Assembly: GCA_963762255.1 (NCBI GenBank)
Contig: CAVXKA010000001.1
Span: 1,504,001-1,568,000 of the forward strand
Direction of reading: 5' to 3'
DNA: 64,000 nucleotides
Origin: Candidatus Eiseniibacteriota bacterium
GTDB lineage: Bacteria; Eisenbacteria; RBG-16-71-46; JABDJR01
Both the position numbers and the translations under genes were made by a program. The notes beneath the pieces were generated by a model that was not told the DNA's origin, ran no database searches, and was given only the letters and a program-made list of their open reading frames with translations. Positions 34,877 to 56,040 of this stretch are shown one piece after another. How positions within the stretch are numbered: the first letter of the stretch is position 1; each line of letters starts with the position of its first letter.

Positions 34877-34977
34877 GTCTAACCAGCCGCTGCAGCCGCC
34901 GCCCGCTCCTGGGGGTAGGATAGGGCTTTGAAAGGTGTCGGTCGTCGCGGGCGCGGCTGACCGGCAGCACGTTGGAC
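34877..34977 (+). repeat. attC1 (main family)
   Basis: GTCTAAC...GTTGGAC. Confidence 0.93.
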
Positions 34978-34994
34978 AGACTAGGGGAGCGACG

Positions 34995-35603
34995 ATGGAG
35001 GCTGCACTAGCAAGCTGGCTCGGCTTGGTCTTGGCTGAGGCGACCAAGCAGGTCACCTCGCAGGCGACCTCGGGCATCGTGTCGCGGATTCGCAAGCTCG
35101 TCGCAAGCCGTCTTGGCTCGGAACCGAACGCGACTCAAGGGTCGCCGCAGCGGCATCACCGATCTCGTTAGCAGGACGAGGCAATCCCTGCCGCGCTCGA
35201 GGAACTCGTCGGCCAATCCCCGGTGCTTCGAAGGTTGAGTCGCGCGCTCGATCTGCTCGAGGGCGCCTGTGTTCTGTGGGTCGACGACCATCCAGAATGG
35301 AACTCGTGGGAGATGGCGTGTCTTGAGTCTGCGGGCGTGCGCGTGCGCACGGTTGAGACGACGCGATCCGCTCTCGCAATGGTAGCGGATGGCTACGACA
35401 CCATCGTGTCTGATATTCGCCGTGGCGATGAGCCGGACGCGGGGCTCAATAGGGCGCGTCACGCCGTCGCTCACGGTCGAAGGAGCCGAAAGGACCCGCA
35501 GGTGAACCGGAAGACGGTAGGGCGGTGGGAAGTGCTTGTTCAAGGCATCGTGCATGAGGTGGAGTGCATCCTGGAGGCGGAGTGCGGTACGCGCCGGGTG
35601 TAA
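34995..35603 (+). pseudogene. Cassette 2: frameshifted receiver-domain gene fused to an unrelated 3' fragment
   Basis: VLWVDDHP..YDTIVSDIRRG (REC-like) is truncated and followed by RARHAVAHG. The cassette end boxes do not match. Confidence 0.6.
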
Positions 35604-35607
35604 GGTC

Positions 35608-35708
35608 ACCTAACGGGCCGCTGCAGCCGCCGCCCGCTCCTGGGAGTGGGATAGGGCTTTGAAGGGTGCCGGATGTCGCGAGCGCGGCTGACCGGCAACA
35701 CGTTAGCC
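35608..35708 (+). repeat. attC2 (main family)
   Basis: ACCTAAC...GTTAGCC. Confidence 0.93.
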
Positions 35709-35724
35709 GGACAGGAATGGAGCT

Positions 35725-36078
35725 ATGAAGCAGAAGAAGCTCCAGAGCGTCGCCCATAACACAATGGACCACGCCGTCAGCGGTTTGGGTTTTCTCACTC
35801 CGCATGTCGTCGAGTTCTTCAGCGTTTCCGGCCAGCGGAAGCTCTCGGTTAATCTCCTTGCCGATGATCCGGTTGCAGGCAGCGGTCCACTCTCGCAGCC
35901 GCTCACGGTGGCAGCGCAATCCTGTCGACGAGATTCCTTGAGATCCTTGCCAGCGAGGGCTTCAGCCCGGCCATTCTCATGGCGGCCCGGCTCGAATTTG
36001 CTGACCTCGATGGTGCCGATTTCACATGCGAATGCGTGCTGGAATCCGAGCAAGGCGGGCGCTATAGCGCCTCAATGA
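35725..36078 (+). CDS. Cassette 3: hypothetical protein (may be frameshifted distally)
   Basis: ATG after GGAG directly after attC2. Confidence 0.5.
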   Translation: MKQKKLQSVAHNTMDHAVSGLGFLTPHVVEFFSVSGQRKLSVNLLADDPVAGSGPLSQPLTVAAQSCRRDSLRSLPARASARPFSWRPGSNLLTSMVPISHANACWNPSKAGAIAPQ

Positions 36079-36146
36079 ACTCCAAGACCTATTGGATGCA
36101 TGCACGCCAGGATCCGTGGGAGGCAATTCGGAGACTTCGGGGCGCC

Positions 36147-36247
36147 GGCTAACAAGCCGCTGCAGCCGCCGCCCGCTCCTGGGAGTGGGATAGGGCTTTG
36201 AAGGGTGCCGGATGTCGCGAGCGCGGCTGACCGGCAACACGTTAGGC
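36147..36247 (+). repeat. attC3 (main family)
   Basis: GGCTAAC...GTTAGGC. A 90-bp core is identical to attC2. Confidence 0.93.
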
Positions 36248-36274
36248 GTCACGGAACGATCGGGGGATCTCGAA

Positions 36275-36823
36275 ATGATGAATGACGTCCAAATTCATTC
36301 AGTCCGAATGCAGGTGCCGCCACGTGTGCGAATCGGTGGCTTGGGGAGGGGGGAGTTGCTCGAAGCGCTGCACTCGCACGGTGTCATGCTCAATCCCATC
36401 GGAGTCGAACTGTTCCAACATCCTGGATTCACCACCAAGGCGACAAGCAAGACAGTGGAGATCGCTTGTGTTTCGGTTGCGGCGCTCGGCTTCTCAGGCG
36501 GAGGGATCTACCAAGACATTGTTCAAGCAGCGATGCGACGTCGGCTGGTCGAGTGCCCTCTTGAGCTGGGGCCGCACTTGCGGATTGCCTACCTTCATCA
36601 AGCAGAGGGCTCGATCGGCTGTGCGCCTACGCAGAACAAGGCGCCTTCTGGCTCCATCACAGTGGCGTCGCCCCCACTAGACAACGACGACACTACGCCT
36701 AAGGGGTTCTATCTTCGACGCATAGAGGGCGTCTTGTGGCTCAGGGGCTTCACGTCCTGGTCGGGGCACGTATGGAGTGCCGAGGACGTTTTCGTCTTTG
36801 CGAGGCACAGTGGTGAAGCCTAA
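36275..36823 (+). CDS. Cassette 4: conserved hypothetical protein
   Basis: Motifs CPLELGPHLR and PKGFYLRRIEGVLWLRG. Stop TAA lies inside the attC end box. Confidence 0.7.
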   Translation: MMNDVQIHSVRMQVPPRVRIGGLGRGELLEALHSHGVMLNPIGVELFQHPGFTTKATSKTVEIACVSVAALGFSGGGIYQDIVQAAMRRRLVECPLELGPHLRIAYLHQAEGSIGCAPTQNKAPSGSITVASPPLDNDDTTPKGFYLRRIEGVLWLRGFTSWSGHVWSAEDVFVFARHSGEA

Positions 36824-36886
36824 CCTCTCCATCGAGCGGATACGCCCCGGCAGGCCGGGCCGTGCCGCTCATGTCGAACATTAGGT
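36818..36886 (+). repeat. attC4 (short, different family; GTT mutated to ATT)
   Basis: GCCTAAC...GAGCGG..CCCGGCAGGCCGGG..CCGCTC...ATTAGGT. Confidence 0.85.
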
Positions 36887-36894
36887 TGAAGACT

Positions 36895-37377
36895 ATGGTA
36901 GGAAAGACGTTTCTCGTGTTGCTGGCCTTCACCGTCTTGGGGTGTGGGGACTCGACTTCTCCTTGCCACTCTGATCTCGCATTCCCACCCAAGCACCCAG
37001 AGCGGGTCACGGTCTCCCAGGGGGTTTGGGGCCTTGTTGCTTTTTGGGAAGGTGATTTCATGCCGCACTGCCTGTCAGGCACGATCACTCCTGTCGGCCG
37101 GGAGATGCGGATCCATGCGCTCACCCGGCCAGATCAAGTTGAGGGGGTGGGGCCCTTCTTCTCGGAAGTACGGACGCCGGAAGTGGCTAGGGTCTGGTCA
37201 GACGCAGATGGCTTCTTCCAGGCTGCGCTTGCGCCAGGTAAGTACAGTCTGTTCTCGGTAGAGGACACGGCCCTGTATGCGAATCGTTTGTCCTCGGGTG
37301 CTTTGTGTCCCTTCACCGTGTCGCCAGACACGGTGATCGCGGTGACTTTTGACATCACCTGGGGTGCGAACTACTGA
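36895..37377 (+). CDS. Cassette 5: putative lipoprotein
   Basis: Lipobox VLGC; SDADGFFQAALAPGKYSL. Confidence 0.7.
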   Translation: MVGKTFLVLLAFTVLGCGDSTSPCHSDLAFPPKHPERVTVSQGVWGLVAFWEGDFMPHCLSGTITPVGREMRIHALTRPDQVEGVGPFFSEVRTPEVARVWSDADGFFQAALAPGKYSLFSVEDTALYANRLSSGALCPFTVSPDTVIAVTFDITWGANY

Positions 37378-37383
37378 GATTCA

Positions 37384-37484
37384 ACCTACCGGGCCGCTAC
37401 AGCCGCCGCCTGCTCCTGGGAGTAGGATAGGGCTTTGAAAGGCTCCGGTGGTCGCGGGCGCGGCTGACCGGCAGCACGTTAGAC
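37384..37484 (+). repeat. attC5 (main family; AAC mutated to ACC)
   Basis: ACCTACC...GTTAGAC. Confidence 0.9.
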
Positions 37485-37507
37485 AGATTGGAGGATTCAG
37501 AGTGAAC

Positions 37508-38191
37508 ATGCAGCGGGTTCTGCTGGCCGTGCTAGGTACTCACGTGATGATCTTCTCTCTGCTGGTTGCCCCAACGGAGTGCGTCGCTGAAGACCCAGGA
37601 CGGGCCGATCCCCTGCAGAAGGGTGCGTGGGCCATTCAGTTCGGAATCACGTCTGACTTCACCTTGAATTCGTTCAGCGGCGGCATCATGTCCATGAAAC
37701 GCCACTTCTCCTCGCGTTCGGCATTACGCGGCGGGCTCAGCGGATCGCTGGAGAGTCTCGATGGGGTATCCCAGTGGTCCGATCCGGACACAACGGCCAG
37801 TGAGGATACCGATCGGGACGCAGCCGGTCTTGGGATTGAACTCCAGTACCTGTACTACTCGCGACCCATCAATGGGTTGAGTCTCTACTGGGGGACCGGA
37901 CCTTCCTATCGGACGAATCGCGACGAGTCCGGGTATTCAGCGGACGGTAGGGAGAGTAGGCGTACCAGACACCAGTGGTCGCTTGGCCTCCTCAACTCGC
38001 TGGGCGTGGAGTGGTTCCCCGCGAAGTTCGTCGGGATACACGCGGAGTACGGGCTTGCGCTGGAATATGTCTCCCAATCGACCGAGGACAATTACCTGAC
38101 AGAGTTGGGGCGAGCGCTGCGGAACTCTGAACTTGACGGGTGGCGAGTGGATGATCGCCCGGTGAGGTTTGGAGTCAGTGTCTACTTCTAG
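37508..38191 (+). CDS. Cassette 6: putative outer-membrane beta-barrel protein
   Basis: Signal peptide, amphipathic strands and terminal FGVSVYF. Confidence 0.7.
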   Translation: MQRVLLAVLGTHVMIFSLLVAPTECVAEDPGRADPLQKGAWAIQFGITSDFTLNSFSGGIMSMKRHFSSRSALRGGLSGSLESLDGVSQWSDPDTTASEDTDRDAAGLGIELQYLYYSRPINGLSLYWGTGPSYRTNRDESGYSADGRESRRTRHQWSLGLLNSLGVEWFPAKFVGIHAEYGLALEYVSQSTEDNYLTELGRALRNSELDGWRVDDRPVRFGVSVYF

Positions 38192-38197
38192 ACCACA

Positions 38198-38299
38198 GTC
38201 TAACGGGCCGCTGCAGCCGCCGCCCGCTCCTGGGGAGTAGGATACGGCTTTGGAGGGCGCTGGTGGTCGCGGGCGCGGCTGACCGGCGGCACGTTAGCT
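38198..38299 (+). repeat. attC6 (main family)
   Basis: GTCTAAC...GTTAGCT. Confidence 0.93.
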
Positions 38300-38316
38300 T
38301 GCTGGGTGAGGGGTTT

Positions 38317-39099
38317 ATGAGACTGCGATTTGAGCGGCTGGCGTTGTGGGCTTCTTGCGGGGTACTCGTTGCGCTCCTATCCCCAGTGCGTCTAGCGCGT
38401 GCGAATGGGCCCGAGATCGGAAGAGATGCTGGGGCCATTTTCCCGCTAGAGAGCCCTGCGGTGCAATTGGTCTATGAACACATTACTGCGACTCTGCCGC
38501 CGCAGGGATACGAGTACGATCCAGGCTCCGTCGTCTGCATCTACGGGCTCCGGAATCTCACGGACCAGGCAGTTACGTTCGAGATGTCATTCGTGACCAA
38601 CATTCCCGGACGTTTCCCCGGAGTCGTCGCGGATCAGTACAGGAGAGCGAAGTTCACAGCACAGTTGAAAGGGGCTGATCTTCCCGTAGGAATCGCTCCG
38701 GCAGACTCCGCGAAATGGGTTCCGTTCTTCGGAGTGCCGGTGGATTCCCTACCCGTGTGGACGATCGAGCTGGGGCCACGAGAGGAAGCCACCCTGAGAG
38801 TCTCGTATCTCGCGGAGTGGTCAGGCGGCGCGGATGGTGATCATTGGACGCGCTACTTTGAGTACCTGGCTACCGCAGCCTCGCTTTGGGCCGGGCCAAT
38901 CGAGCACGCAAGGGTGGAGTTTGTCCTGGGTGATCTCTTCGTAGCTGCGCTGAAGGAGATGGGGGAGGGAAGCGATCGCTTCCAGGTCCAGATCGAGCCG
39001 GCCGATGGCAAGTGGTCGTGGAACGGCGTCGTGTGGGAACGAGCGAACTGGGAGCCAGATGAAGACTTCCGACTCAGCTTTGATGGGAACGACCGGTAA
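38317..39099 (+). CDS. Cassette 7: secreted protein (DUF4424-like)
   Basis: Signal peptide ending ARA-N; motifs YLATAASLWAGPI and NWEPDED. Confidence 0.6.
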   Translation: MRLRFERLALWASCGVLVALLSPVRLARANGPEIGRDAGAIFPLESPAVQLVYEHITATLPPQGYEYDPGSVVCIYGLRNLTDQAVTFEMSFVTNIPGRFPGVVADQYRRAKFTAQLKGADLPVGIAPADSAKWVPFFGVPVDSLPVWTIELGPREEATLRVSYLAEWSGGADGDHWTRYFEYLATAASLWAGPIEHARVEFVLGDLFVAALKEMGEGSDRFQVQIEPADGKWSWNGVVWERANWEPDEDFRLSFDGNDR

Positions 39100-39113
39100 C
39101 CATGTGGTAAACA

Positions 39114-39215
39114 AGCTAACGGGCCGCTTCAGCCGCCGCCCGCTCCCGGGGAGTAGGATAGGGCCTTAAAAGGTGTCGGTCGTCGCGGGCACGGCTGACC
39201 GGCAGCACGTTAGGT
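39114..39215 (+). repeat. attC7 (main family)
   Basis: AGCTAAC...GTTAGGT. Confidence 0.93.
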
Positions 39216-39244
39216 TCACGGTTCCCGGGCTGGGGGAAATCGAC

Positions 39245-39727
39245 ATGGTCAGACTGATTTGTCTCGTGTCACTCCTTGCTCTACTCGGCTGTGCTGAGGA
39301 CAAAGTTACACAACCAGGGCCCGTCGGCTTCACCGCAATCGCTGATACCTCGTTCTCCGATTCGAATGTCCGCCTGGCTCTTTCGGTATCTCGCCAAGGT
39401 ACCTTGATCTATCTGGAGGTCGTCGCGTCCAACGAAAGCGCTCAGCTCCTCCGTTACGATGCGGGAGGTTGTGGATGTCCGGCACCAGGTCTCGGGCTGC
39501 ACGGCGAGGAGGGAGCAATCTGCTGGCAGCCGAGACCTCTCTGCCCATGCTGGGAGGAGATTCTCGAGTTCAGACCTGATGGGAGTGTTGGGAGGGCATC
39601 GTTGTTTCAGCTATGTCTTGAATCCCCGGGTCAGTATGTAGCTACAGCTGGCCTCTGGTACTGGTCGGGCGTGGGCCCGGAATGGGAACACCATTCGATT
39701 GAGGTTTCACTCCCCGTCACGCTATGA
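39245..39727 (+). CDS. Cassette 8: putative lipoprotein, Cys-rich
   Basis: Lipobox LLGC; GCGCP and CPC motifs. Confidence 0.7.
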   Translation: MVRLICLVSLLALLGCAEDKVTQPGPVGFTAIADTSFSDSNVRLALSVSRQGTLIYLEVVASNESAQLLRYDAGGCGCPAPGLGLHGEEGAICWQPRPLCPCWEEILEFRPDGSVGRASLFQLCLESPGQYVATAGLWYWSGVGPEWEHHSIEVSLPVTL

Positions 39728-39745
39728 GTCTCGATGAGGGGCGGA

Positions 39746-39847
39746 ACCTAACGGGCCGCTGCAGCCGCCACCCGCTCCTGGGGAGTAGGATAGGGCTTTG
39801 AAGGGCGCCGGTCGTCGCGGGCGCGGCGGACCGGCAGCACGTTAGGT
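39746..39847 (+). repeat. attC8 (main family)
   Basis: ACCTAAC...GTTAGGT. Confidence 0.93.
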
Positions 39848-39868
39848 TGACAGACGGGGAGGTTAGCG

Positions 39869-40138
39869 CTGGATCCTCGAATTTGGCCTGAATGGTGGGA
39901 CTGGGAACTCGAGCTCAGCCCCCACCTATGGAAGCGCATGGAAGATCGGAGATTTACTGAAGTGGATCTCCGAACCATGCTCTCGCGGGCGATGGCCATT
40001 CGGGCGGACGTAGTGCCGGGCCGGTGGGTTGCTGCGACCCGATTTCGGAAGGCCGATTGGGAGATCATCGTGGAGCCCGATGAAGGTGGTAGAATACTTG
40101 TCGTGATCACCGCCTATCCTGCGGAAGCAGACTCATGA
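39869..40138 (+). CDS. Cassette 9a: DUF4258-like (BrnT/RelE-fold) putative toxin
   Basis: WPEWWDWELELSPHLWKRMEDR...LVVITAYP. The reading frame extends upstream to a CTG placed 6 nt after GGGAGG. Confidence 0.65.
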   Translation: MDPRIWPEWWDWELELSPHLWKRMEDRRFTEVDLRTMLSRAMAIRADVVPGRWVAATRFRKADWEIIVEPDEGGRILVVITAYPAEADS

Positions 40139-40407
40139 GCCAGACTTACTTGGAAGTCACTTTTCGCCACGGTAAACCCCTTGCGGCCTATTACTACCTC
40201 CCACGCCGGCCGGGCCAGCGAAGCTACAGGACTCAGCGATTCGAGCCGGGTCTTGTCGTTGATTTCTCCAGAGGTGGGAAGCCACTCGGGATTGAGATCA
40301 CGGCCCCGTCTTCGACCCCGCTCTCAGCCATCAACCGGGTGCTGGCTAGCCTTGGGTTGCCGAAGTTGACCCGCGCTGAATTTGCACCCTTGCGGCTCGC
40401 TGCTTAG
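40135..40407 (+). CDS. Cassette 9b: DUF2283-like putative antitoxin
   Basis: AAYYYL...LVVDF..GKPLGIEI. ATGA overlap with 9a. Confidence 0.7.
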   Translation: MSQTYLEVTFRHGKPLAAYYYLPRRPGQRSYRTQRFEPGLVVDFSRGGKPLGIEITAPSSTPLSAINRVLASLGLPKLTRAEFAPLRLAA

Positions 40408-40417
40408 AACGAGGGCA

Positions 40418-40519
40418 ACCTGACGGGCCGTTGCAGCCGCCGCCCGCTCCCGGGGAGTAGGATAGGGCTTTGAAAGGTGCCGGTCGTCGCGGGCGCGGCT
40501 GACCGGCAGCACGTTGGAC
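40418..40519 (+). repeat. attC9 (main family; end box ACCTGAC)
   Basis: ACCTGAC...GTTGGAC. Confidence 0.9.
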
Positions 40520-40556
40520 CGTTGATGATGGTGGGGATAGGGCTTGGGGGACGCAA

Positions 40557-40997
40557 ATGCGCAACGTCCTTGCGGTAGTCATGGTTTTGGCGATGGGGGT
40601 GGTGAGCTGCGATGAGGACGTGAGCCCTCGGGGGCAGGACGAGATGAGTCTGGCGTTTGTGGTCGAAGAGACTCTCACACTGCCGGACTCCGCAGCTTAT
40701 GTCCAGGTCATAGGGTCCGGTCGCATCGATCTGGTTGGTTTCTACACCGGTTGCAGCTACACAATGCAAGGCAGGCTCCTCGGGCCGGAGGTCCCGAGCA
40801 TCGTGGTGGATGTAGAGATCAACCGTTGCCCGGTAATCTGCATCCGGAACGTCCACAGCCGGTACCGGGGGACGATCACTGGGGTTCCGCCTGGTGAGCA
40901 TCGGGTCCTTCTGGAGCATGTGGTCCGAGACTGTCATTCTGGGGAGTTGACCCATGTGGCGACAGTTCTCGACACCGTGGTGACGGTTCCTTCATAG
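40557..40997 (+). CDS. Cassette 10: putative lipoprotein
   Basis: Lipobox VVSC; beta-rich, with GVPPGEHRV. Confidence 0.7.
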   Translation: MRNVLAVVMVLAMGVVSCDEDVSPRGQDEMSLAFVVEETLTLPDSAAYVQVIGSGRIDLVGFYTGCSYTMQGRLLGPEVPSIVVDVEINRCPVICIRNVHSRYRGTITGVPPGEHRVLLEHVVRDCHSGELTHVATVLDTVVTVPS

Positions 40998-41005
40998 CGG
41001 GGCCG

Positions 41006-41108
41006 GTCTAACAGGCCGCTGCAGCCGCCGTCCGCTCCTGGGGAGTAGAATGCAGCATTGAAAGGTGGCCGGTCGTCGCGGGCGCGGCTGACCGGCAACA
41101 CGTTAGCC
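41006..41108 (+). repeat. attC10 (main family)
   Basis: GTCTAAC...GTTAGCC. Confidence 0.92.
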
Positions 41109-41148
41109 AGAACACCGAGAGCATCGTCTAACCGGGAGGAGCGCCCAG

Positions 41149-41385
41149 ATGATCGATCTCTACGACAATGAAACGAACAGACTCCTCGGCTCGATTACTG
41201 AGTCTGAGCTGCAACTTCTCGTGGATGCGCTCGAGGAGGAGTCCAGCAAGGACCAAGACTACTACATCAACCAGGATACCATCGGCATGATCGCCGACGG
41301 CCGCGCGTCCGATCATCTTCTTCAGCTACTACGTTCGGCGCTAGGCACCGCAGACGGTGTCGAGATCAGTTGGAAACGCCGCTAG
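41149..41385 (+). CDS. Cassette 11a: small acidic conserved hypothetical protein
   Basis: GGAGGAG RBS; LEEESSKDQDYYINQDT. Confidence 0.7.
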   Translation: MIDLYDNETNRLLGSITESELQLLVDALEEESSKDQDYYINQDTIGMIADGRASDHLLQLLRSALGTADGVEISWKRR

Positions 41386-41517
41386 CCGGATCTCCCAGCA
41401 CTGGCTCGGAGACGATGGAGAGACCCAGGACCTCTGTTCCCACGGCAGCCTGGCGCTGTCCATCGGCGGTGTGCGACTGGCCGACGGGAGCGAGGATTAC
41501 GGCATCAGTGAATCACC

Positions 41518-41826
41518 ATGCTGATGATGGGCTGCCCAATAGGGATCGATTGGTCGGTGCGCCATGAGAGTGGCTCGGTGCGCCTCGACGGAATCGTCGT
41601 TTACCTCTCCACCAACGAAGACCGTGATGCCAGCCGTTCTGACGCAGTCGCGTTGCTGCCTCTGGCCGAGTATCGGTCTCAGGTGCTCGCCTTCGCAGAG
41701 AGCGCGCGCGACTTCTTTCTCCAGGCACCGCGGAAGTCGTTTTGCGATGCCTTCGACCGTGGAGAATACGAGCAGTTCTGGCGCGAGTTCGACTGCATCC
41801 TCGAACGCCAGCGCTTGATCGGCTAA
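41518..41826 (+). CDS. Cassette 11b: hypothetical protein, possibly 5'-truncated
   Basis: Stop TAA lies within the GGCTAAC end box. Confidence 0.5.
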   Translation: MLMMGCPIGIDWSVRHESGSVRLDGIVVYLSTNEDRDASRSDAVALLPLAEYRSQVLAFAESARDFFLQAPRKSFCDAFDRGEYEQFWREFDCILERQRLIG

Positions 41827-41910: not shown

Positions 41911-41981
41911 GGCCAAAACGTACAGAAAGGAGACCACGATCAGAAGACGAGCAGGCGGCACCTGAGACGAAAGGTGTTACG

Positions 41982-48540: not shown

Positions 48541-48544
48541 GGGT

Positions 48545-48645: not shown

Positions 48646-48665
48646 ATTTAAGGATCGGTGATCTG

Positions 48666-49502
48666 GTGTTCATAGCAGCGCTTCTGGTTCTTCTGCTGGC
48701 ATCCCCGGCGACCGCCACTGTGCAAGGCGATACTCATATCGGTCCCTACCTGGTTCAGGTGACCGCGGACTCGATAGACGCTCACGACGTCTTAGTCGTC
48801 CGGGCCGGGGGCAGAAGCCTCTTCCGTATAGATAACTTCCTCCGGTTGCGCCTGTCGGGACCGGTTCAGGACCCCAGAGTGTCTATTTCCCCCGGGACCG
48901 ACATCTCGGGTGACGGCATTCCGGATCTCGTCGTTTTCGGCTGGAGCGGTGGAGCTCACTGTTGCTTCGTGGCATGGGTACTCTCCCTTGGGGAGGAGTT
49001 TCGTGTTCTTGCGGAAGTGACGGGCGGAGACGTCGAACCGATCTTTCGCCAGATGGACGACGACACAGCATTGGAGGTACAGGTGGTGGACGGAGCGTTC
49101 GCCTACTGGCCCAGGTCGTTTGGTGGATCCCCGTCAGTTCGCGTGGCGCTGGACTGGGCGGGGGATCGACTGCATCCGTCGGTGGAGCTCACCGCGACGT
49201 TGCAGCCTACGGCAGCAGAAGTCATCTCTGACGCCGACCGAATCAGGACCGACCCGGGGTGGCAGACACAGATGGAACCGTACGACGCGGTTTTCAGCCG
49301 GGCTCTCGAGTTGCTCTACTCAGGGCATGAGGATCTTGCGGCCTCATTCATCGACTCTGCCTGGGGCGGGACCCGAAGTGGAGAAGTCCAACTTGTGATG
49401 GAGTTCGGTCAACGGCTTGAACGGAGCATCTACCACGGTAGGCTGGAGAACGCGCGGCGTGAGATGCATAAGTTGCATTCCGACCGGCCCAATGGAAGGT
49501 GA
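48666..49502 (+). CDS. Cassette 20: secreted hypothetical protein (start uncertain)
   Basis: Signal-like leader; DISGDGIPDLVV..WSGGAHCC motif. Confidence 0.65.
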   Translation: MFIAALLVLLLASPATATVQGDTHIGPYLVQVTADSIDAHDVLVVRAGGRSLFRIDNFLRLRLSGPVQDPRVSISPGTDISGDGIPDLVVFGWSGGAHCCFVAWVLSLGEEFRVLAEVTGGDVEPIFRQMDDDTALEVQVVDGAFAYWPRSFGGSPSVRVALDWAGDRLHPSVELTATLQPTAAEVISDADRIRTDPGWQTQMEPYDAVFSRALELLYSGHEDLAASFIDSAWGGTRSGEVQLVMEFGQRLERSIYHGRLENARREMHKLHSDRPNGR

Positions 49503-49503
49503 T

Positions 49504-49563
49504 GCCTAACAGTGGCACGCAGCGGGCGCCGCTACGCACCGCCGCTGATGCCATGCGGTAGGC
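49504..49563 (+). repeat. attC20 (60-bp 59-be type; GTT mutated to GGT)
   Basis: GCCTAACAGTGGCACGCAGCGG..GCTACGC..CCGCTGATGCCATGC-GGTAGGC. Confidence 0.82.
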
Positions 49564-49613
49564 TGTGAAGGCTGGTTATTGAGTGAGGGTGTGGCGTCGG
49601 AGGGACAAGATTC

Positions 49614-50003
49614 ATGCGCGCACTACCTGAGCGGTTGTTCATCGTCGCTTTCATGCCTCTTGTCTTTGGATGCGGTTCGGGTGCTGACCGTCAGGTAGTA
49701 ACCGTTGACCCGACGTATGGCTACACGGAGGAGAACCCAATCAAGGTAGGGGGGTTCGAAGAGGATCAGGGTCCGGACAACGAACAGCGCTTCCTTGAAT
49801 CACTCCGTGGACCGAAGGGCCAACGAGTTCGTTTCGAACGAAATGGTCACTGCTGCCCCTTTGCGACGCCTGCGAGTGAGCTGGGGCTTGGCTTCCTGGA
49901 CGTTTACGAAGTCACGTATGACGGCCTGGGTGTCCCCGTGAAGCTGTACATCAACATGTACGATAAGGACAAACTGCAGGCCCCCAAGGGCTTCTCGTAT
50001 TGA
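49614..50003 (+). CDS. Cassette 21: putative lipoprotein
   Basis: Lipobox VFGC; motifs YGYTEENPIKVG, LRGPKG, GHCCPF and LYINMYD. Confidence 0.75.
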   Translation: MRALPERLFIVAFMPLVFGCGSGADRQVVTVDPTYGYTEENPIKVGGFEEDQGPDNEQRFLESLRGPKGQRVRFERNGHCCPFATPASELGLGFLDVYEVTYDGLGVPVKLYINMYDKDKLQAPKGFSY

Positions 50004-50026
50004 AGGGGAATTTGAAACCCGCGGCA

Positions 50027-50129
50027 GCCCAACCTGCCGTTTCAGCCGCCGCCCGCTCCTGAGGAGTAGAATGCGGCTTTGAACGGCGGCCGGTGGTCGC
50101 GGGCGCGCCTGACCGGCAGCACGTCAGGC
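50027..50129 (+). repeat. attC21 (main family; GTT mutated to GTC)
   Basis: GCCCAAC...GTCAGGC. Confidence 0.88.
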
Positions 50130-50149
50130 GGCCCGAAGGAGTGAACTCT

Positions 50150-50593
50150 ATGACATCCTCAGCCTTGGTGCCCAAGGAGGAGGTTCGGCGTGCGTGCGAG
50201 AGTCTTGGCATCAAGGATTGGAGCACTGTCACAGAGTTGACAGTGTCTGCCGATGAAGCACGAGCGATCCTCAAAGAGATCGGCGGCGAAGCCCGTGAGG
50301 TCGGCCTGGAGGATTTCCGCCACGGCCTGCAGATCGAACTCGAGCACGGTACCCGCTTCCCGGATGCCAACGTCACTAACAACCATCCCGTCCTCACCGG
50401 AAAGATCGTCCTCGCACATCTAAAGGAATCGCTGCTTTACTACAAACGACTTGCTGTCGCCGAACTCGAGGGTGACCTCCTCAACGCGACCAAAGCACGC
50501 GACGCAGACAAGATATGGTCGGTCTATGCGCGAATTGTCTCGGCCCGCCTTGCCCTAGATCAGGCGGAGGTCGAGTATCTAGCAGATGCGTGA
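50150..50593 (+). CDS. Cassette 22: DUF5661-like protein
   Basis: FRHGLQIELEHG..NVT..TGKIVLAHLKE..YYKRL. Confidence 0.75.
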   Translation: MTSSALVPKEEVRRACESLGIKDWSTVTELTVSADEARAILKEIGGEAREVGLEDFRHGLQIELEHGTRFPDANVTNNHPVLTGKIVLAHLKESLLYYKRLAVAELEGDLLNATKARDADKIWSVYARIVSARLALDQAEVEYLADA

Positions 50594-50599
50594 GATGCC

Positions 50600-50753
50600 G
50601 CCTAACCAGGCAATGGTGCTGACCGGCCGCGGTCGGTAGCGTGCCACGGCTTTGGCCCGCCGGCCGCCGGGGCGGGTGGTTGACAAGCCGGCGGGCGGCG
50701 GTCGTCACTTCCGGGTACACCGCGGCCGGCAGTTCATTGCCGGGCCGTTATGT
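50600..50753 (+). repeat. attC22 (long, different family)
   Basis: GCCTAAC..GGCAATGGTGCTGACCGGCCGCGGT...ACCGCGGCCGGCAGTTCATTGCC..GTTATGT. The loop contains TTGACA. Confidence 0.85.
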
Positions 50754-50776
50754 GGACAATCTTGGCAGGAGCGTAA

Positions 50777-51202
50777 ATGAGATTCAGGGGGGCGATGCAG
50801 AGACTCTTGGCTCAGGCACCACGCACAATTGCTGCCGCGCTCGTATGCGTGCTGCTGGCCGGCTGTGGTGAGGATGGCGTCGTCTGTACTCATGAGTATG
50901 TTCCCGGCATCACGATTGAGGTTCGTGATGCCGCAACGGGCGCCCCTGCTGCCTGTGGAGCTACGGCTTGGTTCATATCCGGGTCGTGGTCGGAGATGAG
51001 TGAGCGCTGGTGGGGATGCGATATGCCGGATTCGCTGTACTTGCCAAGCCTGAAGGGTGCATACGAGCGCAGTGGTACTTACACGGTGTTGGTGCTCAAG
51101 GACGGGTATGCGCCATGGTCGCGAGACGAGATCGAGGTTCGCGAGGACGCCTGTCATGTCCGGACAGTTGAGCTCAAGGCCATGCTGGTCCGGAATCCTT
51201 GA
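50777..51202 (+). CDS. Cassette 23: putative lipoprotein, carboxypeptidase-regulatory-like fold
   Basis: Lipobox LAGC; motifs VRDAATGAP and GTYTVLVLKDGYAPW. Confidence 0.7.
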   Translation: MRFRGAMQRLLAQAPRTIAAALVCVLLAGCGEDGVVCTHEYVPGITIEVRDAATGAPAACGATAWFISGSWSEMSERWWGCDMPDSLYLPSLKGAYERSGTYTVLVLKDGYAPWSRDEIEVREDACHVRTVELKAMLVRNP

Positions 51203-51218
51203 GGCGCCGCGGGGCACC

Positions 51219-51320
51219 ATATAACGGGCCGCTGCAGCCGCCGCCCGCTCCTGGGGAGTAGGATGGGGCTTTGAAAGGCGTCGGGTGTCGCGGGCGCGGC
51301 TGAACGGCAGCACGTTAGAC
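51219..51320 (+). repeat. attC23 (main family)
   Basis: ATATAAC...GTTAGAC. Confidence 0.92.
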
Positions 51321-51337
51321 CGCATGTTGGAGGCAAG

Positions 51338-51913
51338 ATGAACAGAGTTGAAGGCCAGATTCGACTGCTCTGGATCGTGGTTATTCTGCAGGGCCTGGTG
51401 ATTGCTGGATTGTTTGTGATGGGAAGTGCTGGCCCACCCAGCACACTGACTTGCCGTGAGTTGATCGTGGTCGACGAGAATCAGGAGCCTAGAATCCGGC
51501 TGAAGGGCTACCCGGACAGCCAACCGCGGCAGATCCAGAGAGAGATCGCCGAGCTCTCCGCGGGCCCGGGCTACTCTCAGCTAACGCTCGTTGGGGAGAG
51601 CGCGCACTCGCGTTTGGATGCGGGCAAGTACGTGGCGTCTGTCAGTCTTCAGGCGACTCCCGACGTGAGCTCCGGGCAGGTCACTTTCTGGCCGGAGACC
51701 TCTGCATCCCTGGAAGTCGATGTTCGTCGCGAGCGTCGCGCGTGCTTCTTGGAACTACGCGATGACGACGCGCCCCGGCTGATTCTCGGCTCTTCACAGA
51801 ACAACCAGCTTTCCCTTGGGGCCAAGGGGCAGGAGCCGGAATGGGCGCCAACGTCATCGATAGTCCTGCTAGACGAGAACGGGACTGAGGTGTTCCGTGC
51901 ACCGGGCCGCTGA
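51338..51913 (+). CDS. Cassette 24: hypothetical protein with N-terminal TM anchor
   Basis: GGAGG RBS, one TM helix and repeated LxDxxGxxR-type strands. Confidence 0.65.
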   Translation: MNRVEGQIRLLWIVVILQGLVIAGLFVMGSAGPPSTLTCRELIVVDENQEPRIRLKGYPDSQPRQIQREIAELSAGPGYSQLTLVGESAHSRLDAGKYVASVSLQATPDVSSGQVTFWPETSASLEVDVRRERRACFLELRDDDAPRLILGSSQNNQLSLGAKGQEPEWAPTSSIVLLDENGTEVFRAPGR

Positions 51914-51925
51914 CGCAAGGGTTCG

Positions 51926-52027
51926 ATCTAACGGGCTGCTGCAGCCGCCGCCCGCTCCTGGGGAGTAGGATAGGGCTTTGAAGGGCGCCGGTCGTCGCGG
52001 GCGCGGCGGACCGGCAGCACGTTCGGC
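51926..52027 (+). repeat. attC24 (main family)
   Basis: ATCTAAC...GTTCGGC. Confidence 0.92.
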
Positions 52028-52071
52028 TACGATAGTAAATCATAACAACACAAAGAAAGGAGGTGATACCT

Positions 52072-52203
52072 ATGCCAAACAAAGATAAGAAAGGCCCAAA
52101 GGGGCAGGGACCGAAAGATGGGCACGGTGGAGGAAAAGGGAAAGGGAAAGGAACAAATACGCCCGCTGGTCCGAAGAAGGGCGGGAAGAAGGGCGGATGC
52201 TAA
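52072..52203 (+). CDS. Cassette 25: 43-aa Lys/Gly-rich peptide (not in the ORF track)
   Basis: Perfect SD AAAGGAGGTGAT, then MPNKDKKGPKGQGPKDGHGGGKGKGKGTNTPAGPKKGGKKGGC*. Confidence 0.75.
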   Translation: MPNKDKKGPKGQGPKDGHGGGKGKGKGTNTPAGPKKGGKKGGC

Positions 52204-52205
52204 TC

Positions 52206-52305
52206 ACCGGACCAGTCGTCGCAGGCGACGTTGCCCGCCGGGACGATTCTTCGCAGTCCTAAACGGAGTTCAGGCGGGCAGCGCGCCTGAACTCACCCGT
52301 CAGGC
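52206..52305 (+). repeat. attC25 (degenerate, different family)
   Basis: ACCGGAC..CAGGCGACGTTGCCCGCC...GGCGGGCAGCGCGCCTG..GTCAGGC. Confidence 0.65.
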
Positions 52306-52327
52306 GCCTGACCGCGCTGGAGGCGTG

Positions 52328-52804
52328 ATGACGAAGATCGAGGAAAGCGTTATCGTCGACGCCCCGGTGGACGCGGTCTTCGGCTATGCGTCCGACTGGC
52401 GGAGGTGGTCTGACTGGTTTGATGGTCTGTCCGGCGTTCGGCCGACATCCGAGATGACCCGTGGTAGCGGTGCGCGCTACAGCTACAGCGTCAGAGTCAT
52501 GGGTCTCCCAGCAATCGTTGAGACGGAGATCTATGATTTCGTCGAGGGCCGGGGCTGGACCGGGGTCGGGACACGTGGTCTGCCGCATCGGACGCACTGG
52601 CTGTTCGAAGCGCAGGGCCAATCGACGAGATTCACGTACACGCTGGAGTACCGCCTGCCTGTGCCTGTGTTGGGCGCCGCGCTTGACGCTCTAGTGTTGA
52701 AGCGCGAGTGGCGTGGCATACTCCGGAGGTCTCTCTCGAACGTCCGAGGGCACTTTCTCCGATCCGCGCCGCCGGAGGTGGTGGGGGCGAGCCACGGCAC
52801 CTAG
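52328..52804 (+). CDS. Cassette 26: SRPBCC family protein
   Basis: IEESVIVDAPVDAVFGYASD...WLFE..STRFTY. Confidence 0.85.
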   Translation: MTKIEESVIVDAPVDAVFGYASDWRRWSDWFDGLSGVRPTSEMTRGSGARYSYSVRVMGLPAIVETEIYDFVEGRGWTGVGTRGLPHRTHWLFEAQGQSTRFTYTLEYRLPVPVLGAALDALVLKREWRGILRRSLSNVRGHFLRSAPPEVVGASHGT

Positions 52805-52868
52805 CTAGCGTTTGCGGCCGACGGCGCCCGCCTCCGGCGGTCACGTCGGCGTAGCTTGAGCGTTCGAC
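52799..52868 (+). repeat. attC26 (degenerate short type)
   Basis: ACCTAGC..GCCGACG..CCGCC..GGCGG..CGTCGGC..GTTCGAC. GTTCGAC pairs with GTCGAAC at 53784. Confidence 0.65.
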
Positions 52869-52893
52869 CCATCAGCGAGACAAGGGGTTCCCT

Positions 52894-53637
52894 GTGTCCG
52901 GACAACAGACGGTTCTGCTCGTCGGAGGCACCGGACGCACTGGTCGACGCGTCCTCGAACAGCTTCTGCGGCGCGGAGTCAGCGTGCGCGCGATCGTGCG
53001 GTCGACCCGCAGACTCCCGAAGGACATTACGGATGATCCGCGACTGACGATTGTCGAGGCCGACCTCCTGTCGTTAGGCGGCGAAGACCTCGTCGCGCGA
53101 ATTCGTGGCTGCGATGTAGTCGTTTCGTGTCTCGGCCATGTCATCAGCGTCAGGGGAGTGCTTGGTCCACCGCGTGATCTAGTCACGCGAGCCACTGAGC
53201 GACTCTGTCACGCGATTCAAGAGTCGCAGCCAGACACACCCGTCAAGTACATCCTCATGAGCAGCGTTTCAGTCAATAACCCCGGTGCGTCCGATCCGCG
53301 GCGAGGCACGATGGAGAAGGTATTTCTGTGGGTTCTCCGCGGGTTAGTCCCGCCGGCAAGAGACAATCAGCGAGCCGCGGATTTCCTCTCTCGCGAGATA
53401 GGGTTGGACAATCCGCTCGTGCATTGGGTTGTGGTTCGCCCGGACACCCTCCTGGAGGGTGATGTTTCGGCCTACTCGCTACACGAGAACCTCGTGACCA
53501 ACCTCTTCAAGCCGGTCAGTACCAACATGGCGAACGTTGCGCACTTCATGTGCGAGCTCGCCACTGATCCGGAAATGTGGGACAGGTGGGCGGGGCGACT
53601 GCCCGTAGTCGTCAACGCATCCAGTCCGGACGGGTGA
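52894..53637 (+). CDS. Cassette 27: NAD(P)H-binding protein (atypical SDR)
   Basis: Rossmann motif VGGTGRTG; WVVVRP. Confidence 0.85.
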   Translation: MSGQQTVLLVGGTGRTGRRVLEQLLRRGVSVRAIVRSTRRLPKDITDDPRLTIVEADLLSLGGEDLVARIRGCDVVVSCLGHVISVRGVLGPPRDLVTRATERLCHAIQESQPDTPVKYILMSSVSVNNPGASDPRRGTMEKVFLWVLRGLVPPARDNQRAADFLSREIGLDNPLVHWVVVRPDTLLEGDVSAYSLHENLVTNLFKPVSTNMANVAHFMCELATDPEMWDRWAGRLPVVVNASSPDG

Positions 53638-53783
53638 CACCCGAGGCGTAAGCACTCCCGGCATGAGCTACCGAGTGGCAGGCGATGCTGCGCCCCACGG
53701 GCCGCGAACCGAAGTCGGGGCAAGACTCTTCGTAGTTGACTTAGGGCTAGGCCGACCCGGCGCAACGCACCAGGTACGAAGCC

Positions 53784-53886
53784 GTCGAACAAGCCGCCGC
53801 AGCAGCCCCCCGCTTCTGGCGAGTAGAATGCGACCTTGATAGGCGGCCGGTCGTCGCGGATGCGGCGGACCGGCAGTACGTCAGGC
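53784..53886 (+). repeat. attC27 (main family, degenerate)
   Basis: GTCGAAC...GAGTAGAATGCG...GTCAGGC. Confidence 0.8.
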
Positions 53887-53906
53887 GCCTTGCCAGTGCC
53901 GTATCC

Positions 53907-54347
53907 TTGAACTCTGTGATTCACTACAACCCCGAAGGCCCAGTCTTAGTCTATGACGGCACCTGCAGCTTTTGCGCTGGCAGCGTGCGGCTCATTCTCA
54001 AGCACGACCGGAAGAAATTGCTGCGGTTCGCCACCCGCGATAGTAATTTCGGCCGTGGCGTTGTTCAGCGTCACCCCGAGATCGCCGATGTGGATTCGCT
54101 CCTGTGGGTAGTACCCGCCGGTCAGGACCTGGGCTCAGAATTGGTGCTCACTCGTTCCGCCGCAGCTCTGCAGGTCGCGGCCTATCTGGGGGGAATCTGG
54201 CGAGCGGCCAGGGTGGCGAGGCTGATGCCTCGTTCGCTTCGCGATGCCGTCTATGAGTTTGTGGCCAAACACCGACTCGCGCTGACTCCGGGCGCCCGGC
54301 AGTGCCTGGTCCCCACCCCAGATGAGCGATTCCGCTTTCTAGCCTGA
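53907..54347 (+). CDS. Cassette 28: DCC1-like thiol-disulfide oxidoreductase
   Basis: Motifs VYDGTCSFC and RDAVYEFVAKHR. Confidence 0.88.
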   Translation: MNSVIHYNPEGPVLVYDGTCSFCAGSVRLILKHDRKKLLRFATRDSNFGRGVVQRHPEIADVDSLLWVVPAGQDLGSELVLTRSAAALQVAAYLGGIWRAARVARLMPRSLRDAVYEFVAKHRLALTPGARQCLVPTPDERFRFLA

Positions 54348-54356
54348 AAGAGGGCC

Positions 54357-54422
54357 GCGCAACAAGCCACTGCAGCGGCCGCCCGCTCCTGCGAGTAGGT
54401 TGCGGCTTTGAAGGGCGGCCGG
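54357..54422 (+). repeat. attC28 (main family, right arm deleted)
   Basis: GCGCAACAAGCCACTGCAGCGGCCGCCCGCTCCTGCGAGTAGGTTGCGGCTTTGAAGGGCGGCCGG, after which similarity ends. Confidence 0.8.
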
Positions 54423-54520
54423 AAGCACTCACTCACGGACTCCGGCTCAGGGCGGACGACGCCCCACCTGTCCGGGTCGTGTCGGGTATGATCTGAAGAG
54501 CTAATTGGAGGATCGCACCC

Positions 54521-55411
54521 ATGCCCCGCAAGACCGCACACGATTTCGATCAGGAATTGCTCGTCCTGTTCGACGCCTACGTCCATGGGGCCATCGACCG
54601 CCGCACGTTTCTCGACAAGGCTGCCAGGTTCGCCGTCGGTGGAGTCACGGCGATGATGCTGCTTGATCAGCTGAGTCCGAACTTTGCGGCCGCGCAGGTG
54701 GTTAGCGCCGAGGACAAACGGATCGAGGCGAAGCATCTGGAGTACGACTCGCCGAAGGGCTACGCCAGAGCCCGCGGGTACTTCGTCAATCCGGCGGCGG
54801 CGAAAGGGAAGCTTCCGGGCGTCCTCGTGATCCACGAGAACCGCGGCCTCAACCCGCATATCGAAGACATCGCACGGCGCCTCGCGCTCGATGGCTTTGT
54901 CGCCTTCGCCCCCGACGCCCTCTTCTCTCTGGGTGGCTACCCCGGCGACGAAGACAAGGCGCGCGAGCTGTTCGTGAAGCTCGATCAAGCCCGGACCCGC
55001 GAAGACTTCACCGCCGCGGCAGCGTTTCTGAAAGCGCGCCCGGAGTGCACGGGCAGGGTGGGAGCGGTGGGCTTCTGCTACGGGGGAGGCATGGTGAACT
55101 ACCTGGCCACGCGTCTGGGCGGCGATCTCTCCGCCGCCGTCTGCTTCTACGGTTCCCCCCCGGACATGGAGGACGTGCCGAAGATCAAAGCACCGCTGAT
55201 TGTGCACTCCGCGGAGAAGGACGAGCGCATCAACGCCAGCTGGCCGGAGTTCGAGCGGGCTCTCAAGGCAGCGAAGGTCAAGTACGAGCGCTTCCTGTAT
55301 CCCGGTACGCTGCACGGCTTCAACAACGACACAACGCCGCGGTATGACGCGGACGCGGCCAAGCTCGCGTGGGGGAGGACGCTCGCGTTCCTCGAGAAGC
55401 ATCTGCGGTAG
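54521..55411 (+). CDS. Dienelactone hydrolase family protein (YghX-like)
   Basis: Motifs DRRTFL, HENRGLNPHIED, GFCYGG and HGFNND. Confidence 0.92.
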   Translation: MPRKTAHDFDQELLVLFDAYVHGAIDRRTFLDKAARFAVGGVTAMMLLDQLSPNFAAAQVVSAEDKRIEAKHLEYDSPKGYARARGYFVNPAAAKGKLPGVLVIHENRGLNPHIEDIARRLALDGFVAFAPDALFSLGGYPGDEDKARELFVKLDQARTREDFTAAAAFLKARPECTGRVGAVGFCYGGGMVNYLATRLGGDLSAAVCFYGSPPDMEDVPKIKAPLIVHSAEKDERINASWPEFERALKAAKVKYERFLYPGTLHGFNNDTTPRYDADAAKLAWGRTLAFLEKHLR

Positions 55412-55480
55412 CTGATGCGCCGGGCCCATCGGAACGTCAAGCTCGGCCAGTTTTGGAAACGCGCTTGACGGGGAGGCCGC

Positions 55481-55900
55481 ATGGCCTTGAGCGCATTCGA
55501 TGACAAGTCTCGTCCGCCCAAGCCTGGTGAGCTCGAAGCGGTTCTCGGCGATTCCGCCGGGCTCTGGGATGAGCTGGTTGCGCACGTGGAGGGGGCCTAC
55601 CCGCCGGTCACGCAACTCTGGAATTTCTCCGGTGCCAAGTACGGCTGGTCGCTGCGGCTCAAGCGCCGCGAGCGGATCGTGCTTTACATGACGCCGCAGC
55701 CTGGAGGCTTCCTGCTAGGCGTCGTCTTGGGCGAGAAGGCGGCGAAGGCCGCGCATGATTCGGGTTTGCCAAAATCGGTCCTCATCCTGATCGACGGCGC
55801 ACCCCGCTACGCCGAGGGTCGGGGCATCCGCCTCGTTGTCTCGAGCGCAGGCGACCTCGCTGCGGCGCGGACGCTCGCTGCGCTCAAGATGGCCACGTGA
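55481..55900 (+). CDS. DUF3788-like protein
   Basis: Motifs KYGWSLRLK and YAEGRGIRL. Confidence 0.75.
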   Translation: MALSAFDDKSRPPKPGELEAVLGDSAGLWDELVAHVEGAYPPVTQLWNFSGAKYGWSLRLKRRERIVLYMTPQPGGFLLGVVLGEKAAKAAHDSGLPKSVLILIDGAPRYAEGRGIRLVVSSAGDLAAARTLAALKMAT

Positions 55901-55938
55901 CGGCACTACGTCAGGCGAATCGGAGGGTTGGCAGGGTC

Positions 55939-56040
55939 GCCCGACCGGGCGTTGCCGCCGGCGTCCGCTCCCGGGGAGTAGAATCCGGCTTTGCGGGCGG
56001 CCGGTCATTGCGGTCGCGGCGGACCGGCCGCACGAGAGGA
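55939..56040 (+). repeat. attC29 (main family, both boxes degenerate)
   Basis: GCCCGAC...CCGCTCCCGGGGAGTAGAATCCGGCTTTG...CGGACCGGCCGCAC-GAGAGGA. Confidence 0.75.

Follow-up and report, generated by a model that had tools for sequence, protein, structure and literature searches.

A −10-like hexamer in the attC sites of a reverse-type integron array beside a decayed integrase gene in Candidatus Eiseniibacteriota

On the accepted view, as given in the relevant parts of PMC8946536 and PMC8876359, integron cassettes are promoterless, only those near the cassette promoter Pc are expressed, and the distal ones form a silent reserve that is woken by integrase shuffling. Cassette-borne promoters, promoter-bearing cassettes without a gene, and wide transcription of a 116-cassette Vibrio array are also in print (PMC8876359, PMC11014356, PMC6557892, PMC2945992), and in Vibrio sp. 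DAT722 a sigma70-type promoter bridging an attC site is accompanied by ∼40-fold more transcript downstream (PMC2945992). The attC sites of one integron are described as more similar to each other than to those of other integrons (Cury et al. 2016, PMC4889954). Here, we analyzed a 64,000-nucleotide (nt) stretch of a Candidatus Eiseniibacteriota genome (contig CAVXKA010000001.1; this whole stretch is called the window below), in which a cassette array carries a repeated attC family with a promoter-like hexamer, TAnnnT, in its central loop.

This array belongs to a sedentary chromosomal integron of the "reverse" type, in which the integrase gene, intI, points the same way as the cassettes, and intI has here decayed. 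Another description that fits is a cluster of attC sites lacking an integron integrase (CALIN), again of the reverse type, beside an intI pseudogene; the locus is an ordinary though little-sampled member of the chromosomal integrons. The initial annotation of this DNA had pointed to the hexamer and proposed that each attC may drive the next cassette, in which case a 22-kb array could be expressed without shuffling and intI might be dispensable. We confirmed the observation of the promoter-like hexamer, and the promoter interpretation was partly supported by the sequence comparisons described below. Our tentative first choice, held with a little less than even confidence, is that the hexamer is a passenger of a homogeneous attC family and has no promoter role of its own.

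The main attC family and its hexamer

Repeat search and alignment over positions 34877 to 56040 gave the main-family set, whose copies are numbered 1 to 20. A main-family attC is ∼100 nt long, begins with CTAAC, ends with GTTAG, and has arms that pair; it consists of R'' and R' core boxes, an imperfect stem of ∼24 base pairs, and a central loop of ∼41 nt (the variable terminal structure) that holds two mini-hairpins. Inverse R''/R' boxes thus close an imperfect hairpin around a variable central part, as attC sites do. RNAalifold returned a consensus of only three pairs for the 31 genome-wide copies, and the structure was therefore written by hand. In the same 31 copies, 84.2% of cells were paired in the hand-written structure versus 28 to 44% with slid partners, and compensatory changes in the stems were few because the copies are too alike. 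The bottom strand of the reference copy folded at −25.2 kcal/mol (z −1.7). The family copies in the window are as follows.

34877..34977 (+), attC 1: TAGGAT at 34916-34921
35608..35708 (+), attC 2: TGGGAT at 35647-35652, without the A
36147..36247 (+), attC 3: TGGGAT at 36186-36191; 97% identical to attC 2
37384..37484 (+), attC 4: TAGGAT at 37423-37428
38198..38299 (+), attC 5: TAGGAT at 38238-38243
39114..39215 (+), attC 6: TAGGAT at 39154-39159
39746..39847 (+), attC 7, the reference copy: TAGGAT at 39786-39791
40418..40519 (+), attC 8: TAGGAT at 40458-40463
41006..41108 (+), attC 9: TAGAAT at 41046-41051
43636..43736 (+), attC 10: TAGGAT at 43674-43679
45579..45677 (+), attC 11: TAGGAT at 45616-45621; its TAG is the stop of the cassette's longest open reading frame (ORF)
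46411..46512 (+), attC 12: TAAGAT at 46451-46456; its TAA is the stop of the cassette's longest ORF
47794..47885 (+), attC 13: hexamer removed by a 10-nt deletion
48545..48645 (+), attC 14: TAGGAT at 48584-48589
50027..50129 (+), attC 15: TAGAAT at 50067-50072
51219..51320 (+), attC 16: TAGGAT at 51259-51264
51926..52027 (+), attC 17: TAGGAT at 51966-51971
53784..53886 (+), attC 18, decayed: R' reads GTCAG; TAGAAT at 53824-53829
54357..54420 (+), attC 19, 5' half only, 3' half lost: TAGGTT at 54396-54401
55939..56040 (+), attC 20, decayed: R'' reads CCGAC and R' reads CGAGAG; TAGAAT at 55979-55984

TAnnnT, the sigma70-type −10 pattern, stands at one aligned position in 17 of the 20 copies (TAGGAT in 11, TAGAAT in four, TAAGAT and TAGGTT in one each). 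It comes after a CTCC..GGAG mini-palindrome and lies in the unpaired linker between the two small helices of the central loop. The exceptions are two copies with TGGGAT (35647 and 36186) and one from which the hexamer is deleted (47794-47885), and the three decayed sites (53784, 54357, and 55939) retain it despite their damaged R boxes. In all these respects the initial annotation was borne out. Its claim that variation is confined to the middle bases stood for the 17 window copies and fell for the wider family: in an alignment of 42 copies from the window, other arrays, two relatives, and metagenome contigs, the second base, which is the critical one in a −10 element, read G in six copies and the first base was not T in three (C twice, A once), with at least one deviating row (C1:488201) misaligned. 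The key columns kept T in 39, A in 36, and T in 40 of the 42 copies, and the complete TAnnnT was present in 34, with a 35th in another alignment.

To see how well these columns are kept, we slid the three-column pattern (i, i+1, i+5) along the attC, which gave 93 placements. The hexamer placement ranked 20 of 93 in the 42 copies and 12 of 93 in the 15 most diverged ones. The mean score across the site was 0.85 in the 42 copies, and every part was highly conserved. The best-kept block, CCGCCCGCTCCTGGGGAGTA, starts at the top of the stem and takes in the hexamer's first two bases, after which conservation drops, and in the diverged copies the best-kept part is GCTCCTGGGGAGTA. Per column, therefore, the hexamer was no better kept than neighboring loop and stem bases, an outcome that the initial annotation had named beforehand as refuting its proposal. 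Because the 20 window copies form one family, their agreement amounts to a single event. On a given strand, 4.7% of random 41-nt stretches of the genome contain TAnnnT, and TAGGATA also reads TAnnnT on the opposite strand, as it does in 10 of the 20 window copies.

Further copies of the family were found at three other places in the genome, in two relatives (G002 and G004), and on metagenome contigs (eight full copies), and a public Candidatus Eisenbacteria record holds a 94%-identical copy. Outside the window, whole and decayed copies in the same genome form small attC clusters with no integrase nearby (C1:486056-490590, −; C1:835002-841500, +; C2:1157254-1157637, −; C1:1414732-1414784, +), and no new long attC families were seen in its other arrays. 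A 3'-arm pattern scan of genome contigs returned 37 stretches, nearly all of them chance matches in GC-rich actinomycetes; only L088 held a full-length family copy, the match of L070 to the 3' arm was weak and partial (30.5 bits), and L079 and L092 have little in common with the family beyond that arm. The same scan of metagenome contigs returned 23 stretches, comprising the eight full copies and one partial copy among its matches. Families with the same arms and other centers, namely the site at 45024 and families of G002, G003, and G004, lack the motif. The center of the site at 45024-45127, CCTGTCACG, is common to large attC families of G001, G002, G004, and G024 (L141, L138, L140, and L155), and since it recurs in several genomes, these families look like an attC superfamily with exchangeable centers.

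attC centers as candidate promoters

The genome uses classical two-element promoters. The pattern TTGnnn-N16-18-TAnnnT lies within 120 nt upstream of 20 of its 52 tRNA genes (genome density 0.077 per kb per strand), a TGn extension is present in 11 of these 20 promoters, and a tRNA-Pro gene is preceded by TTGAAT-17-TAGGAT. The flavin mononucleotide (FMN) riboswitch of the window (20669-20841, +; Rfam 100.4 bits) has TTGACC-17-TACCCT in front of it, which cleanly illustrates the promoter type of this organism. We built weight matrices from the 20 tRNA promoters and used them on the attC hexamers; this training set was picked by the very pattern modeled and cannot show that a −35 element is obligatory. 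As −10 elements, TAGGAT and TAGAAT scored in the top 0.12% and top 0.01% of genome positions, respectively. No −35 was found at 16 to 18 nt from the main-family hexamers, where the best candidates scored −2.2 to −8.8 bits, and no TGn extension, the triplet upstream of the hexamer being mostly GAG. C/TTGCAG lies 21 nt upstream, at a spacing that the initial annotation had called non-canonical. Total scores of the main-family sites were −3.2 to +3.3 bits versus 11.9 to 18.8 bits for the tRNA promoters, and as two-element promoters they were matched by 0.3% to 4% of genome positions (about 1 in 50). A consensus scan, which gave 1 site in 20 kb versus 3.8 in shuffles, called none of the main-family attC a promoter. 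Readings of the loop as a sigma54 or extracytoplasmic function (ECF) sigma factor promoter, of TTTGAA as a −35, and of TATCCT as an antisense promoter were dropped, each missing a partner element at the right spacing when the consensus was inspected by eye.

Conservation of the whole site, the lack of a −35 or TG, and the background-level promoter score are what lead us to the passenger reading of the main family. The ∼100-nt repeat is the lineage's own attC family, and on this reading TAGGAT would be kept since the whole site is kept. Common origin and recent spread make the attC sites within a chromosomal integron nearly identical, and the loop is accordingly as uniform as the stems. The cassette genes would then be transcribed by read-through from upstream or by occasional cassette-borne promoters. 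We infer from these features that the hexamer is without function.

A substantial minority possibility is that the hexamer works as the −10 of a weak, outward-directed promoter for which a −35 is dispensable. The holoenzyme of RNA polymerase would recognize the sense TAnnnT in the attC center, where pairing is difficult to maintain and negative supercoiling may cause partial melting. With a start site a few bases further on, the RNA would include the 3' arm of the attC alone and thus no full hairpin. As every attC is part of the cassette upstream of it, cassettes would supply promoters to their downstream neighbors, and such promoters would flatten the expression gradient from Pc. The hexamers rank among the best −10 scores of the genome, and a bona fide tRNA promoter uses TAGGAT. 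TAnnnT is rare in this genome (1.47 per kb per strand), and upstream of crude gene calls the sense motif peaks at −80 to −41 (5.0-5.4 per kb; antisense 2.8-3.4), where roughly 40% of occurrences exceed the background; this is the distance class of the attC hexamer, which sits 65 to 105 nt before the start codon of the next cassette. In most single-gene cassettes the longest ORF begins 6 to 44 nt past the preceding R', and cassettes this compact leave the preceding attC as the only non-coding room for a promoter. A promoter bridging an attC also has its published precedent in Vibrio sp. DAT722 (PMC2945992). Against this reading stand the background-level total score of the main family, with neither −35 nor TG, and the unexceptional conservation of its key bases.

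The window holds other attC-like sites, and three of its unrelated ones contain further promoter-like motifs.

41821..41910 (+), unrelated attC: sense TTTAGA-18-TATGAT at 41833-41862; composite score 8.9 bits, top 0.02% of genome positions
45024..45127 (+), attC with main-family arms and a different center (CCTGTCACG type): no TAnnnT
47128..47214 (+), unrelated attC: sense CTGACG-16-TAGACT (TAGACT at 47169-47174, CTGACG at 47147); composite score 9.6 bits
50598..50755 (+), unrelated 158-nt attC-like site: TAGCGT at 50637-50642 and TTGACA at 50680-50685, not paired as a promoter
52804..52868 (+), short attC-like hairpin between two cassette genes: boundaries by eye

TTTAGA-18-TATGAT is present inside the unrelated attC at 41821-41910, as first annotated. 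The TTGACA reported for another attC is likewise there, at 50680 in the only attC-like site to have one, and no −10 lies 16 to 18 nt from it.

To ask whether the motif has meaning outside the main family, we extended the comparison to attC families of the phylum, in which integron integrases above cut-off were found in 61 of 206 genomes (the 61 include G072, unpublished, on which no other result depends). Arrays were taken downstream of intI, and attC were called by inverse AAC/GTT boxes, at least 6 of 7 complementary bases, and arms folding at −26 kcal/mol or better. "Sense" denotes pointing away from intI, an orientation confirmed by cassette-filling ORFs in four arrays. The curated set comprised 27 long families, one representative each, with the families defined by the analyst.

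Several findings weigh against the passenger reading. Within the main family, all three key bases are kept in 34 of 42 copies, whereas ∼29 would be expected under a uniform 12% per-site divergence by our own arithmetic. In the curated set, sense TAnnnT occurs in the site center of 10 of 27 families versus 3.85 expected from shuffles (P 0.0018), and antisense TAnnnT in three versus 3.80 expected; the P value from a dinucleotide-preserving shuffle, which conditions on TA count, was not relied on. T follows a central TA at +5 in 10 of 18 sense and 3 of 18 antisense cases, and no other offset is T-rich; the baseline is 0.16 to 0.18 in the array outside attC and 0.11 to 0.12 in the genome, and this conditional test was devised after the data were seen, on families that may share ancestry. 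An uncurated run on 52 candidate clusters gave sense TAnnnT in 15 of 44 and antisense in 5 of 44 (P 0.005). Finally, G001, which belongs to another genus of the same family, has a different attC family of ∼135 nt whose center is TGCTATATT or a close variant, that is, the extended −10 sequence TGnTAnnnT. It is present in the sense direction in 17 of 19 copies, an eighteenth, odd copy having TATACT, and forms a conserved island (0.98) between variable flanks (0.74). The sense excess across families and the G001 island are not predicted by the passenger reading and fit the promoter idea or another sense-strand role.

The enrichment is modest and partly post hoc, and its strength depends on the cut of the data. 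Without the window's own families, TA sites gave 6 of 11 (P 0.005) and the family-level count was 6 of 22 versus 3.28 expected (P 0.09); in the uncurated run, the corresponding figures were 13 of 41 without the window (P 0.015), 7 of 20 with a stricter hairpin threshold (P 0.04), and 5 of 17 with both (P 0.15). TAnnnT was the most enriched of the 64 X1X2nnnX6 patterns when 20 or 25 nt were trimmed from each end, but at a 12-nt trim it fell outside the top six, where arm motifs dominate. Other A/T patterns (TTnnnA, AAnnnA) were also somewhat enriched in attC centers, so that A/T clustering in loops accounts for part of the signal, and the motif is absent from 17 of the 27 families. As a control, hairpin candidates upstream of intI had TAnnnT in none of 17 cases. 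Strong sense composites (8.9-9.6 bits, top 0.02%) occur in three of the 27 families, namely TTTAGA-18-TATGAT (41833), CTGACG-16-TAGACT (hexamer at 47169), and TTGCAC-16-TAGGAT (a G045 site), while the best antisense composite reaches 7.7 bits. A −35 or a TGn is therefore present in other families, the former in these three and the latter in G001.

Taken together, the cross-family data are only a statistical hint of promoter elements in attC. That the unpaired center of many attC doubles as an outward −10 element throughout the integrons of this phylum, acting independently of a −35 or helped by TGn or loop melting, seems to us rather doubtful, although, if it did, long arrays would be transcribed from end to end with no need of Pc, shuffling, or a living integrase. 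The proposal that each attC may drive the next cassette thus retains a plausible −10 and its sense-strand recurrence across families, and loses ground on in-family conservation, which is nothing special, and on the missing partner element.

Some observations on individual arrays of the phylum belong here. In G045 (L144, 14398-15129), three identical 100-nt attC are spaced 316 nt apart, and their center, GGAGTAGGGAC, has GGAGTAGG in common with the window family, without the final T. In G003 (L139), a full-length intI is closely followed by tandem repeats of ∼145 nt and ∼278 nt (4706-6213 and 7410-8527); every unit of 278 nt has a 90-nt attC at its end, and these units are probably very small duplicated cassettes. 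In at least 6 of 20 fetched stretches the contig ends ∼80 to 1200 nt after the 3' end of intI, which fits repeat-rich arrays breaking assemblies downstream of a co-oriented intI.

A further reading, which we regard as improbable, gives the conserved center a different sequence-specific function that acts on the sense strand or in the mRNA. It could be a stop codon trap, as the commonest variant offers TAG, TAG, and TGA in the three frames within 16 nt; a Shine-Dalgarno-like GGGGAG followed by a short ORF (TTG to a TGA or TAG near R') that couples translation into the next cassette; or a protein-binding or RNA-processing site. In 3 of 22 cassettes the longest ORF does end in the loop (two at the TAG or TAA of the hexamer, one at the TGA of TTTGAA), and across families the central TA reads TAG in 11 of 18 sites, but in the other 19 cassettes the longest ORF stops before the attC, and only about half of the copies have the second TAG (A in 24 and G in 26 of 42 at those columns). 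Three-frame stopping was dropped as the main role on these two counts, and a stop codon would leave the T at +5, the sole enriched position after TA, unexplained. The coupling idea draws on a short frame that runs from the TTG of the main-family loop to a stop in or near R' (e.g., 39799-39844) and is preceded by GGGGAG, and on the attC at 41821, which has the frame GGAGG-T-ATGATG ... TAG (41857-41907); a review describes short ORFs within attC by which the obstruction of translation by the hairpin is relieved (PMC8876359, section 3.2). In 4 of the 20 copies, however, a 1-nt insertion disrupts the frame, and the spacing from GGGGAG to TTG is 12 nt. For a sequence-specific role of any of these kinds, it is in favor that GCTCCTGGGGAGTA outlasts the rest of the site in diverged copies.

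The array, the integrase remnant, and their neighbors

The array and the integrase remnant comprise the following parts.

33713..34116 (+), intI remnant in two fragments: same strand as the cassettes; N-terminal half and middle missing
34334..34339 (+), GTTAGA, likely attI/first-cassette junction: read from the sequence by the GTTRRRY consensus
34336..56040 (+), cassette array: 20 main-family attC and at least five unrelated attC-like sites; cassette genes on the + strand

The remnant matches the Pfam Phage_integrase domain (E 1.1e-18), and against TIGR02249 it covers positions 85-130 with 41.5 bits and 248-306 with 107.3 bits, the cut-off being 265 bits. A run of about ten Gs lies at its 3' end (34106-34115), right after the conserved ...YTHVLNRGG motif. 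No full-length integron integrase (TIGR02249 above cut-off) was found elsewhere in the genome, whose assembly is 93.6% complete. Full-length intI genes are present in 6 of 10 genomes of the same order (420-467 bits), and in G001, G002, and G004 attC sites and cassette ORFs follow a full-length intI on the same strand. GTTAGA at 34334 is compatible with a crossover site and is a candidate attI. The Pc rule TTGnnn-16/18-TAnnnT was not found on the + strand between 33000 and 34500, upstream of 34334.

Remnant and cassette genes are both on the + strand and the array lies downstream of intI, the arrangement of a reverse integron. Between successive attC sit compact, co-oriented, mostly single-gene cassettes; in 10 of 22 the longest ORF ends 9 to 23 nt before the next R''. 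Pfam domains were detected in 7 of 8 tested + strand ORFs of the array, including M24 peptidase, dienelactone hydrolase, SRPBCC, NAD-binding, methyltransferase, and GNAT domains, and in neither of two long − strand ORFs. The array has a GC content of 0.60 to 0.65 versus 0.63 to 0.70 in the flanks. Rfam gave no match within it; the only matches in the window were the FMN riboswitch mentioned above and a thiamine pyrophosphate (TPP) riboswitch, both outside the array.

The TPP riboswitch (1509-1617, −; 62.9 bits) has TATACT ∼10 nt upstream of its aptamer. Three head-to-tail genes at 28719-33406 lie on the strand opposite to the array (−) and encode a serpin fused to a CarboxypepD_reg domain, a 907-amino-acid VWA/YfbK protein, and an ECF sigma factor, the gene for the last adjoining the intI remnant. 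On the other side, a type III polyketide synthase gene with chalcone/stilbene synthase domains (56710-58071, +) directly follows the last decayed attC.

Comparison with described systems

Full-text searches, which covered main texts, turned up no account of a −10 element that forms part of the consensus of an attC family or that recurs in several families. If the hexamer is a promoter, the logic by which an upstream cassette supplies the promoter of its downstream neighbor would be new. Were attC to carry promoter elements, the genes of a large array would form a permanently expressed set, displaced cassettes would not fall silent when a new one is inserted, and an array could remain of use once its integrase has died, as the integrase has in this locus. 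Ready-made controls exist in the natural TGGGAT and deletion variants and in the extended −10 family of G001, and the question is cheaply testable. Outside integrons, the promoter-early stem-loop (PeSL) boundaries of T4-type phages pair a repeated hairpin with a promoter for the next gene; unlike the attC here, PeSLs have full promoters and are not known to be IntI substrates.

The closest described systems are the sedentary chromosomal integrons and the CALINs beside intI pseudogenes (Cury et al. 2016, PMC4889954). As far as the relevant parts of that source describe them, they have the same long, compact, co-oriented array of mostly single-gene cassettes, the same inverse R''/R' boxes, imperfect hairpins, and near-identical attC within an array, and the same lower array GC, decayed intI alongside, and attC clusters elsewhere in the genome. 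Unlike the sedentary integron model, no intact IntI was found in this 93.6%-complete assembly, and the host lineage is little studied. The locus also resembles the reverse, or inverted-integrase, integrons of the Treponema denticola type (PMC6557892, PMC4889954) in the strand of intI and in an array downstream of it, a layout seen with the remnant intI in the window and with full-length intI in relatives G001 to G004. Treponema denticola belongs to another phylum, and the likeness here is one of layout.

For expression, the nearest precedent is Vibrio sp. DAT722 (PMC2945992), in which, by the same idea, distal cassettes are transcribed from promoters internal to the array, one of which overlaps an attC. 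The promoters described there are individual, diverse, and mostly located in the cassette body, whereas here a −10-like element stands in the consensus of a whole attC family.

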